A stretch of DNA of 64,000 bases from a phage. Shown one piece after another: positions 4,147-59,866 of the stretch (its first letter is position 1; each line of letters opens with the position of its first letter). The position numbers and the translations under genes are program-made. The notes under the pieces are model-generated. The model was not told where the DNA came from. It searched no databases and saw nothing but the letters and a program-made list of their open reading frames with translations. Location of the stretch: the sequence record PZ053912.1; one strand, written 5' to 3'.

Positions 4147-4170
4147 TCAAACAGGCCCTTATGGGCCTGT
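4147..4170 (-). terminator. GC-rich perfect palindrome AAACAGGCCC-TTAT-GGGCCTGTTT (10-bp stem); terminator-like hairpin after the 386-aa gene
   Basis: Seen directly; no clear U tract. Confidence 0.35.
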
Positions 4171-4249
4171 TTAAGAATTTGTTCGTTGCTGTTAATTTTC
4201 ATAGTCAAAATCTCTTCATTAAGTTGGTGGTTAAAAGTTTTTCTAGAAA

Positions 4250-7723: not shown

Positions 7724-8359
7724 TCATTGTTCGCCTCGTAACATGGCACCTAGTGCACCGCCAGGGTGGAACTTAAGGAAGTCATTAGAGGTAAATCCAC
7801 GCTCAGACGAAAGGTTGATAGCAAACGTATCGATAAGCGCTAACAACAATGTAGTGGACATGGTCGGAGCCAGAGAATTCTCATCAACCTCTACTGCGAT
7901 GCCTGTACAGAAAGAGTAATCAAAAAGGGCTTCATTTTCTTGTGGAATGTCCGGGTTACAATGCAACAGAATCTGTTTGACGTTCGGACGAATCATTTTA
8001 AGATGCTTAGCCACGCCTATCATTTCTTCAGTTTTACCAGAACGACTAATATGAATCAACACATCATTAGGCGCAATGAATCCTGCATCACCGTGAGAAT
8101 AATGCCCAGTGTTCAAGTACATACTCGGGATACCGAGTGAAGCAAATGTCTCAGAAGCTTTAGTTGCAATATTAGCATTCTTACCAACACCTGTAATAAT
8201 TACTCGGCTTTCATAATTACTAAGTCCTGGGCGTCGAAGAGTTTCTAGAATAGCATTATAACGAGCAGGGTTTTGACTAATTACTTTGGCCATAGCGGCC
8301 AAAGAAGAAGCTTGTTTTATGATTGCGTCAATAGCGATAGTAATAGGAGTAGTTTTCAT
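7724..8359 (-). CDS. SIS-domain sugar-phosphate isomerase, KdsD/GutQ-like arabinose-5-phosphate isomerase core without CBS domains
   Basis: 211 aa; GVGKNANIATKASETFASLG, HGDAGFIAP, ISRSGKTEE and C-terminal FHPGGALG match my memory of the KdsD SIS domain. Confidence 0.75.
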   Translation of the reverse strand: MKTTPITIAIDAIIKQASSLAAMAKVISQNPARYNAILETLRRPGLSNYESRVIITGVGKNANIATKASETFASLGIPSMYLNTGHYSHGDAGFIAPNDVLIHISRSGKTEEMIGVAKHLKMIRPNVKQILLHCNPDIPQENEALFDYSFCTGIAVEVDENSLAPTMSTTLLLALIDTFAINLSSERGFTSNDFLKFHPGGALGAMLRGEQ

Positions 8360-20313: not shown

Positions 20314-20334
20314 GATATTTTCCTCATTTTAAGA

Positions 20335-20363
20335 CGATAGGAATATAATAACATGTCTTCCTA
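20335..20363 (-). promoter_or_regulatory. Early promoter-like element (TGTACA-17-TATTAT) with 9-bp arms CGATAGGAA/TTCCTATCG flanking the -10
   Basis: Seen directly. Confidence 0.4.
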
Positions 20364-20376
20364 TCGTTGTACATTA

Positions 20377-21016: not shown

Positions 21017-21265
21017 TCAGAGGTTGATTGATACAATGCGTTTGATAAAATTCACTTCACTTACTGAAAGGTCTTTAAGACCGATTGATTCTAAACGCTG
21101 AGTAAGCGTCAACATTGGGATATAGTCCCATTGTGTTTTAGACGTTTGATAAGTACGGACGCCATTAGCAATTTCAACATGCAAATCGGAAATGGTAATG
21201 AATATCAGACGTTCGTTGTTTACATTAAGAGTTAGAACAACTTTCTTTGAATCTAAACTAATCAT
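21017..21265 (-). CDS. Hypothetical protein; start at MISLDSK after GAGGAAAA
   Basis: ORF 21017..21385. Confidence 0.4.
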   Translation of the reverse strand: MISLDSKKVVLTLNVNNERLIFITISDLHVEIANGVRTYQTSKTQWDYIPMLTLTQRLESIGLKDLSVSEVNFIKRIVSINL

Positions 21266-21430
21266 TTTATTTTCCTCTATAGTAGATGGTTTAATCTTAA
21301 CACATCTATTGAGGATGTAAACTGTTTTATGAAAATATTTTCGATTTGAGAGGGGCACAAGGAGATAGTGAAGTGAAGATTCCAATGGATTATATTAGAA
21401 ATGAGATAAAGAAGACCAGGCGGCACCTGG

Positions 21431-30268: not shown

Positions 30269-30796
30269 TTATGCGTGAACCGTCTTTAAACGTTCTTCAA
30301 ATTTCCGAAGAGTACTAATACGTTCTGCTTTCTGTTTTGTATAGTTTGCAATACGTTCTGAAGTGAGAGCGTATCGTTCGTTTACTGTTTCTTTCATGAA
30401 GTCAGGGATTTCACGAGAAGCTTTAATTTCATCAAACTTATCGAGTACTGCCTGGTCTTCAGCAATTAAATTTTCGTACATCTCGATATCTTTCTTGATG
30501 AAGTCGATATCTTCCTGGGTTACTTTGGATAAACGAGATGCTTTATCCTTTTTGTACTGCTCGTTAGTTTCACGAGACCAGAATAATGTACGTTTTTTGT
30601 TAGTGTTTTTGTAGACTTCCACAATTCCAACTGAATCGATGATAACAATCCAATTCCAGCGAGATTTGAAAATCTGACCTCCGTCCACGGTAATCTCGTT
30701 ACCATAAGCAACGTCATTAAAGAACTTGCTTTGTGCTTCAGATTTAAATTTACCGTCGTTATAATTTACCAGGTTGAAAATATCTTTAGCGTTCAT
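30269..30796 (-). CDS. Hypothetical protein
   Basis: 175 aa ORF. Confidence 0.55.
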   Translation of the reverse strand: MNAKDIFNLVNYNDGKFKSEAQSKFFNDVAYGNEITVDGGQIFKSRWNWIVIIDSVGIVEVYKNTNKKRTLFWSRETNEQYKKDKASRLSKVTQEDIDFIKKDIEMYENLIAEDQAVLDKFDEIKASREIPDFMKETVNERYALTSERIANYTKQKAERISTLRKFEERLKTVHA

Positions 30797-30823
30797 GTTT
30801 TACCTCCAGTAGTTGATAGGTCT

Positions 30824-30852
30824 ATAATAACATAAACATAGACCTTGTAAAC
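30824..30852 (-). promoter_or_regulatory. Early promoter (GTTTAC-17-TATTAT) with AGGTCTAT/ATAGACCT arms around the -10
   Basis: Seen directly. Confidence 0.45.
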
Positions 30853-33835: not shown

Positions 33836-34378
33836 TTATTTCAAAGTCGGGATAATAGAATCAAGATAAGCTTTAAGAGCAACTGCTTCATCTTTGTCTA
33901 ATGTAACGATATGTTGACGAAGGTCATCAATTTGACGAATAACTACGACATCACCATCTTCATACGAAGGATTAACGCCTAGGACTGTTGTATAGTCAGG
34001 GTGGTCCTGATTTGTAATAAAAGCATTACGGCATTTAGCCCATTGAAGTTTGGCCTTTTTGGCTGTTTCAGATTCCATTAATTCTTTCACCTTAGTGACG
34101 AATGTTTTCCAATTATTAATAGAAAAACATTCGTCTTCAGTTTCGATATTAACCCCACTATAAAGTCCATGATAAAAACGAACTTGGAGGTCTTCACCAA
34201 TGTTAATTACAGATGCATGGCCGGGTGGATTGAGTTTCAAAATCTTGTCTAGTTCCATAGGAAGAATAGTAGCAGCATCATCTTCTTGTGTCAGAACATA
34301 CACATAACCGCGTTTTTCGATACATAAATCACCAAACAACTCGGTTGTTTCAATTACAGTTTTCATATTATTCACCAA
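33836..34378 (-). CDS. Hypothetical protein
   Basis: 180 aa ORF. Confidence 0.5.
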   Translation of the reverse strand: MVNNMKTVIETTELFGDLCIEKRGYVYVLTQEDDAATILPMELDKILKLNPPGHASVINIGEDLQVRFYHGLYSGVNIETEDECFSINNWKTFVTKVKELMESETAKKAKLQWAKCRNAFITNQDHPDYTTVLGVNPSYEDGDVVVIRQIDDLRQHIVTLDKDEAVALKAYLDSIIPTLK

Positions 34379-35038: not shown

Positions 35039-35043
35039 TAACG

Positions 35044-35095
35044 TTCTCCTCTAGTAAGTAAGATCTACTATAACACAACCTGAGGAGAAGTAAAC
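35044..35095 (-). promoter_or_regulatory. Early promoter (GTTTAC-17-TATAGT) enclosed by 8-bp arms that pair the SD (GAGGAGAA) with an upstream anti-SD
   Basis: Seen directly; arms at 35044-35051 and 35082-35089, -10 at 35067-35072. Confidence 0.5.
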
Positions 35096-38833: not shown

Positions 38834-39292
38834 CTAGATTTTAATCACTGCTTTAGAAGCTTTTCCTGGTAGTCGTTTACTGTTAATAATAGCCATTCTG
38901 CATTGAAGAGTCTTCATTTTGAATGCTGGATTTTCGCGACAAACTGTAAGTCCTAACCAAAGATTTCCATCAGTTATTTCTAAACGGCCTGGACGATATT
39001 CGACACCTTCGACAAAATCTTCATCAACATCTGGACGTGCCGGCATTGATAAAAATTCTGCAACTTCTTTAACATGATTTTTTACTTTACGAAATAATTC
39101 AAAAACGTAATTCTCATCTATTTCTCTCTGGATGGCACGATCTAAGAGATGTTGAGAATACTTGATATGAAAGCCTGGTAGTCCAAGAGACTTTGCAGCA
39201 TCTTTTATACCGGCATTTATTTTGCGGAACTCCGTTTCAAAGATTCGACGGAGTTTATTACGGCGGATAAAAACGTCAGAATTGATAGTCAT
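38834..39292 (-). CDS. regB: RegB sequence-specific endoribonuclease
   Basis: MTINSDVFIRRNKLRR...HIKYSQHLLDRAIQREIDENYVFELF...YRPGRLEITDGNLWLG...CRMAIINSKRLPGKASKAVIK matches recalled T4 RegB. Confidence 0.9.
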   Translation of the reverse strand: MTINSDVFIRRNKLRRIFETEFRKINAGIKDAAKSLGLPGFHIKYSQHLLDRAIQREIDENYVFELFRKVKNHVKEVAEFLSMPARPDVDEDFVEGVEYRPGRLEITDGNLWLGLTVCRENPAFKMKTLQCRMAIINSKRLPGKASKAVIKI

Positions 39293-39300
39293 TTTTGATT

Positions 39301-39350
39301 TCTCCTCTAGTTGACAGGTCTATAGTAACACATCTAGAGGAGAAGTAAAC
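39301..39350 (-). promoter_or_regulatory. regB early promoter (GTTTAC-17-TACTAT) enclosed in a 10-bp hairpin pairing the regB SD with an anti-SD in the promoter spacer
   Basis: Arms UCUCCUCUAG (39334-39343) and CUAGAGGAGA (39301-39310); -10 at 39322-39327. Confidence 0.55.
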
Positions 39351-39354
39351 AACT

Positions 39355-39570
39355 TTATTGATAAAATGGAGTTAAAGCCCAAGATTCTTTAGATACCATA
39401 TCGGCGAAATGCCTCATCTCTTCGATTTGGCGACGACGTTGGTCAGCATAGTCTTCTTCGCCTTCTTCCTTACAATCATCAAGGTCTTCTTCAAGATACT
39501 TTAAGTATTCACTACAAATTTTGTTGACCTTTTCTTGAAAGTCCAATAACCCAGTAATAGTAGAAGCCAT
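39355..39570 (-). CDS. Hypothetical acidic protein
   Basis: 71 aa ORF. Confidence 0.45.
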   Translation of the reverse strand: MASTITGLLDFQEKVNKICSEYLKYLEEDLDDCKEEGEEDYADQRRRQIEEMRHFADMVSKESWALTPFYQ

Positions 39571-41838: not shown

Positions 41839-41929
41839 TTTTGTTTCCTTGTTTGTTTTGATAGAGTAATTATACCATATTAATACTTAAGCGTAAACTG
41901 TTTAAGCTTTACCATCGCAACCTTTTTCC

Positions 41930-42343
41930 TTAGTAAATTGATTTACCATAGTATTTGTACCAAGTAGGACGTTGAGCAATTTTTTCATCTAAACGAGCTT
42001 GACTTATCGCAATGGACGCTTCGGTCGGGACATAATTATTACGAAATTCGGCAGGGATGTCGGAAATATCTTGGACAGTCGTGTCCTTGATTTTGAAACC
42101 ACGTTTCAAGCATTCAGCGATTAGCTCGATTTGACGTAAACGTAAAAATTCGAGTTTGTCGTAAAAGAATGTTACATGACCTGTGCCTAAGATAAATGTC
42201 GGGGAGATTTTAAAATCCTTTACACGTTTACCGTTTTGAACATGTTTACGGACTGCACCAAATACGCGTGGTAATTCACGATACTCAGCCATAAGATGTT
42301 GGTCGGTCAGTTCAGAAACAAGTGTTAAATTGATACGAGTCAT
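41930..42343 (-). CDS. denV: Endonuclease V (pyrimidine-dimer DNA glycosylase) DenV
   Basis: [34 protein letters not shown]... matches recalled T4 DenV; start at internal ATG after GGAGGAA. Confidence 0.9.
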
Positions 42344-42346
42344 AAT

Positions 42347-42400
42347 TTCCTCCAAGTAGTTGATGAATGTATAGTATCAAAACCCTTGGAGGAAGTAAAC
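42347..42400 (-). promoter_or_regulatory. denV early promoter (-10 TACTAT at 42371-42376) enclosed in a 10-bp hairpin pairing the denV SD with an anti-SD at the -35/spacer
   Basis: Arms ttcctccaag (42347-42356) and cttggaggaa (42385-42394) on the plus strand. Confidence 0.5.
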
Positions 42401-42683: not shown

Positions 42684-43168
42684 ATATACGCTTTCCAAGT
42701 TCCTGTTTTAAATGTTGAGATTACGCGTTTCGCGCGATTAGGTGTCTGACGATACCATTTAGATTGGGCTAGATTTACTGCCGCTTCATCCCAACGTTTC
42801 TGTTGAAGCATACGAAGAGAATTAGTAAAACCTGCGACGCCTGCTACACCCATTTGGAAGACCATATTGACCAATGCACATCGACGAACTGCATCTAAAG
42901 AATCATATACCGGTTTAAGTTTAGCATTACCCAAGATTCCGCGAACGGCTTTATCAACGTCTTCATTAAATAGCTTTTCAGCCTCATCAAGGGTAATTGT
43001 ACCGTTGCATTTACGACCGATCATTCTGTCAAGTTCAGCTTTAGCTACGGCTAAAGACGGGTTCTTTGTTACTAAATGGCCTATGCCAATCGTCCAAAAG
43101 CCTTCGGTGTCTTTGTATAAAGTCAGTCTAAGACCTTCGTCATTACGAAGCATTTCAAATATATTCAT
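42680..43168 (-). CDS. e: Endolysin (T4 lysozyme, gene e)
   Basis: [32 protein letters not shown]... matches recalled T4 lysozyme, including the catalytic Glu and the DTEG block. Confidence 0.95.
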
Positions 43169-43170
43169 AA

Positions 43171-43194
43171 TACCTCCCACGTTTATAGGAGGTA
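43171..43194 (-). promoter_or_regulatory. Hairpin sequestering the gene e ribosome-binding site, with a late-promoter-like TATAAACG in the loop
   Basis: Arms UACCUCC and GGAGGUA, loop UAUAAACGUG; the same arrangement is documented for T4 gene e. Confidence 0.6.
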
Positions 43195-53654: not shown

Positions 53655-53684
53655 TTTATTATCCTCTCATGTTTTGATAGGACT

Positions 53685-53713
53685 ACTATAACATAGTCCT
53701 ATCATCATGTAAA
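53685..53713 (-). promoter_or_regulatory. Early promoter (TTTACA-17-TATAGT) with perfect 9-bp arms AUAGGACUA/UAGUCCUAU flanking the -10
   Basis: Seen directly; arms at plus 53677-53685 and 53694-53702. Confidence 0.5.
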
Positions 53714-58133: not shown

Positions 58134-59866
58134 TGGAAATGATTAGCAGTAGCCTTAATTGGTTCGTGGGTGTTGTCGAGGACAGAATGGACCCATTAAA
58201 ACAAGGGCGAGTTCGAGTTCGAGTCGTTGGTCTTCATCCGGCACAGAGAACACAAGGTGATGTACAAGGTATTCCTACAGAAAAACTTCCATGGATGACT
58301 GTTATTCAACCTATTACGTCTGCATCAATGTCAGGTATTGGTGGTTCTGTTACAGGTCCTGTTGAAGGAACTCGAGTATATGGTCATTTCTTAGACAAAT
58401 GGAAAACAAACGGGATTGTACTTGGTACATACGGTGGAATAGTACGTGAAAAACCTAATAGACTTGAAGGTTTTTCAGACCCGACAGGTCAGTATCCGCG
58501 ACGTTTAGGTAATGATACGAACGTATTAAACCAAGGTGGTGAAGCTGGTTATTATTCGAACTCTAACGTAATTCAAGATAACAACTTGGATTATGGTATA
58601 AACCCAGACGATACAGATTTAGCAAATATTCCAGAAGATGATGACCCTAATTTTACAATAACAGAAATGTTACGTCGTGACGAAGGTCTTCGTGATAAAG
58701 TGTATTGGGACCATCTCGGATATCCTACAGTAGGTATTGGACACCTTATAGTAATGGAAAAAACCCGAGATATGTCTCGAATTAATAAATTGTTATCTGA
58801 TCAAGTAGGGCGTGAAGTAACAGGAAATCCGGGAACTATTACATTAGAAGAAGCAACAGCGTTATTTGAGAAGGACCTTGCTAAGATGCAGAAAGACATT
58901 CGTTCTAATTCTAAAGTAGGTCCTGTTTATGCTAAAATGAACAGATCTCGCCAAATGGCATTAGAAAACATGTGCTTCCAGATGGGCGTTGGTGGTGTAG
59001 CAAAATTCAATACTATGCTTAAAGCAATGGCCACAGGTGATTGGAAAACCGCATACAAATCTGGACGCGATTCGTTATGGTTCCAACAGACTAAAGGGCG
59101 TGCTTCACGTGTAACAACAATTATTTTAACTGGTAACATGGAATCATATGGCGTTCCTGTTAAAACACCACCTTCACCAGGAGTTGGTGCTGATTTAGTT
59201 ACTAGAAATACCGATCCAGAAGACCCAGCTGGTCCTCCTGTTCCGTTAGATTCACGCATCCTTTTTAAAGAACCGGAATCAAGTTATCGTGGTGAGTATC
59301 CATACGTTCATGCTATGGAAACAGAAAGCGGTCATATCCAAGAATTTGACGATACTCCAGGTAATGAACGTTATCGCTTAGTTCATCCAACAGGGTCATA
59401 TGAGGAAGTTTCTCCGTCTGGGCGTCGTACTCGTAAAACTGTAGAAGACCTTTTTGACATCACTAATGGCGATGGGAACTTCTTGATTTCTGGTGATAAG
59501 CTTGTTAACGTTGGTGCTAACGAAATATATTATAACATGGCAGACCGCCTCCATCAAATAGATGGCAATGACACAATCTTTATTCGCGGTAACCAATCTA
59601 AAACTGTTGAAGGCGATGGAACTCTTTACGTTAAGGGTAATATCAAAATAGTTGTTGACGGAAATGCAGATATTCTTGTTAAAGGTGATGCTAAAACTCA
59701 GGTCGAAGGGAATCATGATTACACCGTCAACGGAAACGTTAAATGGACTGTTAATGGTAATGTTGATATGACTGTTGCCGGGGATTGGGCAGAAACAATG
59801 ACTACAATGAGCTCAGTAGCTTCAGGACAATACACTGTTGACGGATCTCGTATTGATATTGGGTAA
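58133..59866 (+). CDS. 5: Baseplate hub / cell-puncturing protein gp5 with lysozyme domain
   Basis: 577 aa; T4-lysozyme-like block TEMLRRDEGLRDKVYWDHLGYPTVGIGHL; C-terminal VxGxxxxxV beta-helix repeats. Confidence 0.95.
   Translation: MEMISSSLNWFVGVVEDRMDPLKQGRVRVRVVGLHPAQRTQGDVQGIPTEKLPWMTVIQPITSASMSGIGGSVTGPVEGTRVYGHFLDKWKTNGIVLGTYGGIVREKPNRLEGFSDPTGQYPRRLGNDTNVLNQGGEAGYYSNSNVIQDNNLDYGINPDDTDLANIPEDDDPNFTITEMLRRDEGLRDKVYWDHLGYPTVGIGHLIVMEKTRDMSRINKLLSDQVGREVTGNPGTITLEEATALFEKDLAKMQKDIRSNSKVGPVYAKMNRSRQMALENMCFQMGVGGVAKFNTMLKAMATGDWKTAYKSGRDSLWFQQTKGRASRVTTIILTGNMESYGVPVKTPPSPGVGADLVTRNTDPEDPAGPPVPLDSRILFKEPESSYRGEYPYVHAMETESGHIQEFDDTPGNERYRLVHPTGSYEEVSPSGRRTRKTVEDLFDITNGDGNFLISGDKLVNVGANEIYYNMADRLHQIDGNDTIFIRGNQSKTVEGDGTLYVKGNIKIVVDGNADILVKGDAKTQVEGNHDYTVNGNVKWTVNGNVDMTVAGDWAETMTTMSSVASGQYTVDGSRIDIG

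Follow-up and report, generated by a model that had tools for sequence, protein, structure and literature searches.

Hairpins that hide the translation initiation region on one class of transcript and leave it open on another are known from T4 genes e, soc, 49 and I-TevI and from mobE of phage Aeh1 (PMC3014915). In these systems the Shine-Dalgarno (SD) sequence and/or the AUG lies in a helix on transcripts that begin far upstream, and RNA from a local promoter, which lacks the 5' strand of that helix, is translated (PMC3014915). The local promoters are late (TATAAATA) and expression is delayed to late infection; for T4 gene e, the hairpin cuts lysozyme synthesis ~100-fold (PMC3014915). Here we describe a related arrangement in front of regB, the gene for endoribonuclease RegB, on the minus strand of a 64,000-nucleotide (nt) stretch of phage DNA (sequence record PZ053912.1; this whole stretch is called the window below). 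By its sequence the window is from an RB69-like T-even phage of the genus Mosigvirus: over the 746 bases around the regB hairpin, identity is 99.1% to Escherichia phage S143_2 (Mosigvirus) and 73% to T4. The regB gene is absent from the gene e-type cases listed in the 2010 review (PMC3014915), and no description of a regB hairpin was found in the literature searched.

Two other described systems resemble the locus in part. RegB, which shuts down early T4 messages and whose dose is thought to be tightly limited, cuts the SD of its own promoter-proximal mRNA in T4 and relatives. The enzyme needs its RNA single-stranded, secondary structure being inhibitory, and the RegB/S1 consensus is GGAG followed by an A-rich stretch, GGAGAAUAAAA (PMC1702504). 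The regB site of the window, GGAGAAAUCAAAA, fits this preference for GGAG with an A-rich tail. The same GGAG is concerned in autoregulation and in the hairpin, although autoregulation acts in trans through the protein whereas the regB hairpin is a cis RNA element. The second system is the family of promoter-early stem-loops (PeSLs) of T4-like phages, in which, according to the passages that describe them, an upstream stop codon and the SD/ATG flank a sigma-70-like early promoter that has a stem-loop within or beside it (PMC2839356). Signs of cassette exchange between genes are also shared. In those same passages, however, PeSL stems are G-run/C-run hairpins that act as terminators or attenuators and as recombination sites, they were tested by reporter assay and not by a sequence rule, and SD pairing does not enter the description (PMC2839356); further, the PeSLs described there flank variable ORFans in hyperplastic regions, whereas regB is a conserved gene.

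Read in the sense of regB, the minus strand of the window has the layout caaTAA agtt GTTTAC TTCTCCTCTAG atgtgt TACTAT agacctgtcaa CTAGAGGAGAA atcaaaa ATG, in which 62 bases separate the stop codon of the upstream open reading frame (ORF) from the regB ATG. The features of the locus, in the order of transcription, are as follows.

39355 to 39570, minus strand: upstream ORF of 71 amino acids (aa), taken from the ORF list, in the position of T4 vs.3; its TAA (39357-39355) ends 4 nt before the -35, and the protein has no Pfam match.
39345 to 39350, minus strand: -35 hexamer GTTTAC, of the T4 early-promoter type, which abuts the 5' arm and lies outside the hairpin.
39334 to 39344, minus strand: 5' arm UUCUCCUCUAG (anti-SD), the first 11 nt of the 17-nt spacer between -35 and -10.
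39322 to 39327, minus strand: -10 hexamer TACTAT, in the hairpin loop; it is shared with several other early promoters of T4 type in the window.
39315, minus strand: predicted transcription start, a G at the seventh base past the -10, placed from promoter geometry.
39300 to 39310, minus strand: 3' arm CUAGAGGAGAA; within it is GGAG (39305-39302), the SD and RegB target, and downstream come the A-rich AAUCAAAA and the AUG (39292).
39292-39290, minus strand: regB ATG.
38834 to 39292, minus strand: regB coding sequence from the ORF list, 152 aa.

The identity of the gene as regB, an RNA endonuclease, which had been proposed in a preliminary description of the locus, is borne out by a Pfam match to REGB_T4 (E = 8.8e-69, residues 3-151 of 152) and by 76% identity to T4 RegB. 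The same description had the SD region complementary to an upstream arm and gave the helix as 10 base pairs (bp). The pairing is indeed perfect on the minus strand, and its true length is 11 bp (39344-39334 with 39310-39300, 23 nt between the arms); beyond one A·A mismatch, 2 further pairs are possible. The promoter had also been placed in the loop, and this needs qualification: the -10 and the predicted start lie inside, while the -35 is outside and the upstream part of the spacer serves as the 5' arm. The predicted start, G39315, is 4 nt ahead of the 3' arm, and RNA begun there would have a leader of 23 nt and, as had been stated, would lack the 5' arm; that arm would be carried only by RNA initiated upstream. 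We thus confirm an inverted repeat joined to a T4-type early promoter at regB. No Rfam covariance model matched the segment 39150-39500 at an E-value up to 1.

On balance we favour the proposal that translation of regB is gated by the origin of the transcript, in a manner like that of gene e and with an early promoter in place of a late one; sequence comparison and folding make this the probable reading of the locus. The hairpin would be a cis-acting RNA element built into the regB early promoter, the spacer of which would encode an anti-SD. Polymerase arriving from upstream early promoters (the denV/vs.8-vs.3 operon) would transcribe both arms, and in the resulting polycistronic RNA the 11-bp helix would lock the regB SD, such that no RegB would be made from it. 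Such read-through RNA is also proposed to stay uncut at the regB GGAG, since RegB requires that GGAG be single-stranded. In contrast, RNA begun at the regB promoter would start in the loop, without the 5' arm, and would have a free SD that is translated and open to self-cleavage by RegB. In T4 the regB gene is, according to the literature, transcribed from an early promoter that is shut off after 2-3 min; the proposed arrangement would tie RegB synthesis to a single promoter firing only in the first minutes of infection, with self-cleavage in addition. For this phage we infer the start site, the existence and amount of read-through RNA, the 30S block and the resistance to RegB from sequence and from folding models. 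The likeness to the logic of T4 gene e that had been noted earlier is correct as gene e is described (PMC3014915), and the earlier interpretation is supported, every element of it that can be checked on the sequence holding. There are nevertheless clear differences from the gene e-type systems. The internal promoter of regB is a sigma-70-type early promoter (GTTTAC-17-TACTAT) and not a late one, the anti-SD is the promoter's own -35/-10 spacer, and expression would be expected to be restricted to the first minutes; the temporal logic at regB therefore differs from that at gene e, the local promoter being early.

Predicted folding is consistent with the proposal. RNA containing both arms formed the 11 pairs with a mean probability of at least 0.95, and the probability of GGAG being paired was 1.00 in contexts of 75, 171, 321 and 601 nt, which agrees with the earlier suggestion that the SD would be sequestered in read-through RNA. 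For RNA from the predicted start the same probability was 0.30, or 0.65 with 60 nt of coding sequence added, the pairing in the latter RNA being through weak alternatives of the -2 kcal/mol type. In most clades a similar contrast between long and short RNA was obtained, with SD pairing of ~1.00 vs 0.05-0.45. The 75-nt regB region folded at -20.2 kcal/mol (z = -2.7), and the minimal hairpins of regB, denV and the window's gene e were predicted at -16.4, -18.2 and -12.7 kcal/mol, respectively. The gene e hairpin served as a positive control, being homologous to the T4 structure that has been validated by experiment, and is predicted to be weaker than the regB hairpin. Gene e of the window (ATG 43168; product 81% identical to T4 lysozyme) has its hairpin, ACCUCC...GGAGGU, at 43167-43193 (minus strand), with late-promoter-like UAUAAA within and ahead of the 5' strand. 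A second lysozyme-like coding region was also seen on the opposite strand (58658-59149, plus strand), with 40% identity to T4 gpe over 158 residues.

The stronger evidence is comparative. We gathered regB loci from viral contigs, metagenomes and GenBank phages and obtained 67 loci, which reduce to 38 distinct promoter-to-ATG sequences and ~17 arm types; the metagenome scan contributed only one new arm type, that of locus L072. In almost all enterobacterial types an anti-SD lies directly past the -35, and the sequences differ from type to type, each matching its own SD region. The geometry in which the -10 and the predicted start fall between the arms is the same in all arm types. Examples (5' arm / 3' arm) are given here.

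T4: UUUUCCUCUUGAC / GUUAAGAGGAGAA, with two G·U pairs.
Salmonella-phage type (STML-198-like): UUUCUCCUCUUUAU / AUAAAGAGGAGAAA.
Citrobacter CF1: UCUCCUGUAAG / CUUACAGGAGA.
Kanagawavirus: AUCUCCUUUUAG / CUAAAAGGAGAU.
Dhakavirus: AUCUCCUGUAG / CUACAGGAGAU.
Locus L044: AUCCUCAUUUG / CAAAUGAGGAU.
Locus L072: AUCCUCUCUG / CAGAGAGGAU.

At L044 and L072 the SD is shifted to GAGGA and the spacer is changed to match it, and the CF1 and Dhakavirus arms differ by matched insertions, an A in one arm and a U in the opposite arm. Helices between spacer and leader had a mean length of 9.9 bp for cognate pairs vs 6.7 bp for non-cognate pairs, and none of 100,000 permutations reached the observed value (p < 1e-5). 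For the pair counts the arms were excised in register through their TCC/GGA core, an anchoring that leans towards structure, and the sequences counted are related to each other; under these terms, standard pairs made up 72.3% of the cells, as compared with 57.5±1.6% when the 3' letters were dealt among the sequences (0/500), and 13 of 16 pairs showed changes on both sides, vs 9.5±1.0 in shuffles (0/500). The covariation score was 0.323, vs 0.107 for shuffles and 0.05-0.10 for registers slid by 1-3, and a separate count agrees. Single arm positions hold three or four distinct Watson-Crick pairs; position 8, for example, is C-G, G-C or U-A. Two MAFFT alignments of the full promoter-to-ATG region put the GGAG cores out of register and were not used for pair counts. 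Taken together, these comparisons show that the regB pairing is maintained across genera by compensatory change.

A pyrimidine-rich spacer and a purine-rich SD could in principle be complementary by chance, and the 11-bp repeat alone is in fact only mildly unusual, since ~0.9 perfect repeats of this length with a short loop are expected by shuffling in a window of such composition. Perfect inverted repeats of 11 bp or more (loops of 3-40 nt) number 3 in the window, vs 0.92±0.94 in 60 dinucleotide shuffles, and those of 10 bp or more number 10, vs 3.3±1.7. The two-sided changes and the cognate permutation test given above argue strongly against a chance origin, which we regard as very improbable; it is the placement of the hairpin, SD against promoter spacer, together with conservation through compensatory change, that lifts it well above chance.

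The same comparisons bear on whether the element works as DNA, i.e., as a cruciform or a palindromic protein site governing the early promoter (its shut-off, for instance). Many early promoters of the window have inverted repeats around the -10, and the mechanism of early-promoter shut-off is described in the literature as not fully understood. However, the arm sequences differ freely between phages, which leaves no conserved protein-recognition sequence, and the 3' arm always coincides with the SD or the AUG. Wobble pairs point the same way. Over all positions the numbers of G·U and A·C (11 vs 16) are uninformative, and we considered only G·U inside continuous helices: those fixed within a clade (two in T4-like phages, one in Jiaodavirus, one in Aeromonas phages) keep the helix of the sense strand continuous, whereas the other strand would have A·C mismatches. 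A DNA-level role is accordingly improbable, if somewhat less so than chance.

The proposal requires transcripts that enter regB from upstream, and the gene order makes them plausible: the genes between denV and regB follow one another on a single strand, no terminator was found directly ahead of regB, and early promoters are present upstream. There is no room for a terminator upstream of regB, as the upstream stop codon is 4 nt before the -35, and in every enterobacterial type this stop codon is 0-8 nt from the -35 or overlaps it. A terminator scan from the upstream ORF to regB found none, and between the promoter at 41898 and regB there are only weak terminator-like matches within ORFs. Early promoters lie upstream on the same strand at 41898 and 42400, ~2.5-3 kb from regB, the nearer being:

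41869 to 41898, minus strand: early-type promoter GTTTAC-18-TATAAT, a likely source of read-through into regB.

A scan for MotA boxes from denV to regB found no middle promoter, and there is therefore no sign of middle-mode read-through. In the tk.4 region, downstream of regB, we noted a MotA-box-like TGCTTTA followed after 13 nt by TAGAAT, both in the window (37668, minus strand) and in T4 (locus L001, 3188); this sequence may be a middle promoter. The regB hairpin is not itself an intrinsic terminator, since the stem is followed by AAUCAAAAAUG with no U-run, and the terminator scan does not list it. An RNase III site was also considered and set aside, the stem being too short.

Some relatives are predicted to occlude the regB initiation region in other ways. 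The Gaprivervirus regB has no anti-SD, and the -10 region with the next six bases (GUUAUGAUUAUC) would pair instead with GAUAAUCAUGAC, which spans the end of the SD through the AUG; similarly, the Yersinia-phage type has no anti-SD and its -10 region would pair with AAUAUUAUG. In Aeromonas phages 25 and 44RR a strong terminator, GGGCUC-UUCG-GAGCCC with a U-run, lies directly upstream of the regB promoter, ~60-90 nt upstream of the regB ATG (loci L058-L061 and L077), and their anti-SD is weak (UCCAUGU / AUAUGGA) or, in 44RR, absent. This pattern, from two lineages only, is what would be expected if the arm matters only where read-through occurs. What the folding predictions suggest to be constant across the regB orthologues is occlusion of the SD or the AUG, achieved through quite different arms.

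Several observations weigh against gating by transcript origin, beside the anchoring of the pair counts mentioned above. What would be gained is less obvious than for lysozyme, since all of the transcripts concerned are early. The helix might be melted by ribosomal protein S1, or by ribosomes terminating 11 nt ahead of the 5' arm, where the upstream stop codon lies. In the Karamvirus and Jiaodavirus types the SD pairing is only 5-7 bp and is supported by a nested hairpin (7-8 bp, around the -10) that draws the two arms close. Finally, part of the covariation is whole-cassette swapping, without stepwise compensation, although each cassette still keeps both arms matched and close variants differ by matched changes.

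Cassette swapping leads to the question of whether the regB element is simply a PeSL-type cassette, in which the stem-loop attenuates or terminates upstream transcription and/or serves recombination, and in which the SD falls in the 3' arm merely as a result of the short leader. The available passages of Arbiol 2010 and Comeau 2014 describe early-promoter cassettes that recombine, with stem-loops between or over the -35/-10, and that end in SD and ATG; in the window, too, many early promoters carry repeats that bracket the -10 and have as their 3' arm the start of the transcript, not the SD. Shuffling is also indicated at regB itself. The T4 denV cassette, GTTTAC AUCUCCUGUAG guauga TACTAT agaccuaucaa CUACAGGAGA (locus L084, 1157-1215, minus strand), is nearly identical to the regB cassette of Dhakavirus (JS98, VR5 and MX01; loci L033, L043 and L083), and for this reason the designs look like shuffled promoter cassettes related to PeSLs; in the Mosigvirus loci L062 and L063, moreover, the gene upstream of regB differs and the cassette is unchanged. 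These observations suggest exchange of whole promoter/anti-SD/SD cassettes between genes. On the other hand, no arm type has a U-tract after the stem (GGAGAAAUCAAAAAUG and similar), occlusion of the SD or AUG is constant across regB orthologues while the SD is involved at just 5 of 22 early promoters in the window, and the passages of the PeSL papers at hand do not propose SD pairing. We consider it unlikely that a PeSL function accounts for the locus in place of gating, and the two are in any event compatible, as a cassette can be both mobile and translation-gating.

The figure of 5 in 22 comes from a survey of the other early genes, in which GTTTAC-N16-18-TAnnnT was found to precede 22 genes on the minus strand of the window. 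All SD bases were predicted to pair with bases that precede the predicted start at five of these junctions, as compared with most regB types. The five genes are regB, denV and three of unknown function, the proteins of which all fall in PHROGs of unknown function. The four junctions other than regB are listed here.

42341-42400, minus strand: denV; -35 GTTTAC at 42400-42395, -10 TACTAT at 42376-42371, ATG at 42343.
42394-42385 and 42356-42347, minus strand: denV arms UUCCUCCAAG and CUUGGAGGAA, a perfect 10 bp at -18.2 kcal/mol, in the layout GTTTAC UUCCUCCAAG ... CUUGGAGGAA auu AUG.
35039-35095, minus strand: junction of the promoter at 35095; arms UUCUCCUC / GAGGAGAA; 59-aa protein.
30796-30852, minus strand: junction of the promoter at 30852; 175-aa protein.
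21265-21322, minus strand: junction of the promoter at 21322; arms UCCUCaAUAG / CUAUaGAGGA; 82-aa protein.

The same scan of the first 80 kb of T4 (23 junctions) gave motB.2 (ATG at 8161), nrdC.4 (50915), nrdC.8 (53885), regB (62740), denV (65355) and e.8 (70623), and in part modB (13130). T4 denV, with arms UCUCCUGUAG / CUACAGGAGA, has the design of the window's denV with different arm sequences.

These genes allow a further explanation to be weighed, namely that shielding from RegB is the primary function, the helix keeping RegB from severing the vs.x-regB-vs.1-vs read-through mRNA, with translational silence secondary. For RegB to cut, the GGAG must be single-stranded, and T4 has sixteen structured GGAG sites that resist the enzyme (PMC1702504); the regB SD and the A-rich tail behind it come close to a consensus RegB site; and motB.2 and nrdC.8 of T4, which are named as sites cut by RegB (PMC1702504), also show the design. 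The denV gene does not fit well with this explanation. Its GGAG in T4 is resistant to RegB in vivo for want of an A-rich element and becomes cleavable once that element is grafted (PMC1702504), i.e., the design is present although the site is an intrinsically poor substrate; the grafting experiment shows, in addition, that RNA from denV's own promoter exists with an accessible SD. Likewise, the gene behind the window's promoter at 21322 shows the design although its SD is GAGGAA and lacks GGAG, and many SDs of the near-consensus form GGAGAAUAA in the window are without a hairpin. We therefore hold primary shielding to be doubtful, slightly more so than the PeSL alternative. Under transcript-origin gating, the hiding of RegB's own GGAG on read-through RNA would be a by-product, and the link to GGAG cutting is probably a consequence of the design without being its reason, since denV and others share it.

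The recurrence of the design permits a wider and distinctly more tentative suggestion. T-even phages may possess a class of exchangeable early-promoter cassettes in which the spacer doubles as an anti-SD, and the genes behind them might be translated only from RNA of their own promoters, staying silent on the plentiful read-through ('delayed-early') RNA. The candidate genes in the window are regB, denV and the three others, and those of T4 (first 80 kb) are motB.2, nrdC.4, nrdC.8, regB, denV and e.8. If such a class exists, it would amount to an unrecognised layer of early-gene control, one that could account for some of the GGAG sites that resist RegB and for part of the discrepancy in timing between early mRNAs and proteins. 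The gene e principle and PeSL cassettes are already known; the early-promoter version with the spacer as anti-SD, the compensatory conservation across genera, the predicted consequence for the RegB target and the recurrence at other early genes are new. Valerie et al. (1986, Nucleic Acids Res 14:8637) reportedly noted in their abstract a potential for stable stem-loops in the sequences ahead of ipIII, ipII, denV and orf61.9. From its map position we take orf61.9 to be, probably, regB, in which case the bare T4 stem-loop was noticed 40 years ago.

For regB itself, the hairpin would remove a subset of regB-containing RNA from both translation and cleavage, and regB mRNA would exist in two pools, one RegB-sensitive and translatable, the other RegB-immune and silent. 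Gating would then be a third layer of control on RegB, beside promoter shut-off and self-cleavage. It would also extend the gene e principle to the early period, with a promoter spacer, normally treated as sequence-neutral, carrying a regulatory arm. The recurrence at denV and several early genes suggests a general and portable means of uncoupling translation from read-through in dense phage operons, which would be relevant to the reading of phage transcriptome and proteome time courses and to the use of T4 early promoters in synthetic constructs.

Other inverted repeats were noted in the course of this work. Repeats that bracket the -10 were seen at many early promoters on the minus strand of the window (54044, 53714, 46989, 45694, 45426, 30852, 20374 and 20074), with a 3' arm that corresponds to the first bases of the transcript (AGUCCUAUC / AGACCUAUC) and not to the SD; examples are a perfect 11-bp repeat at 53675-53704 and a 10-bp repeat at 20334-20367. 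By sequence these look like PeSLs. A perfect 12-bp inverted repeat with a 15-nt loop, GACGAAUGUUUU / AAAACAUUCGUC, is present at 34097-34135, and a perfect G+C-rich repeat with a 4-nt loop, AAACAGGCCC / GGGCCUGUUU, is present at 4149-4172 and is terminator-like.

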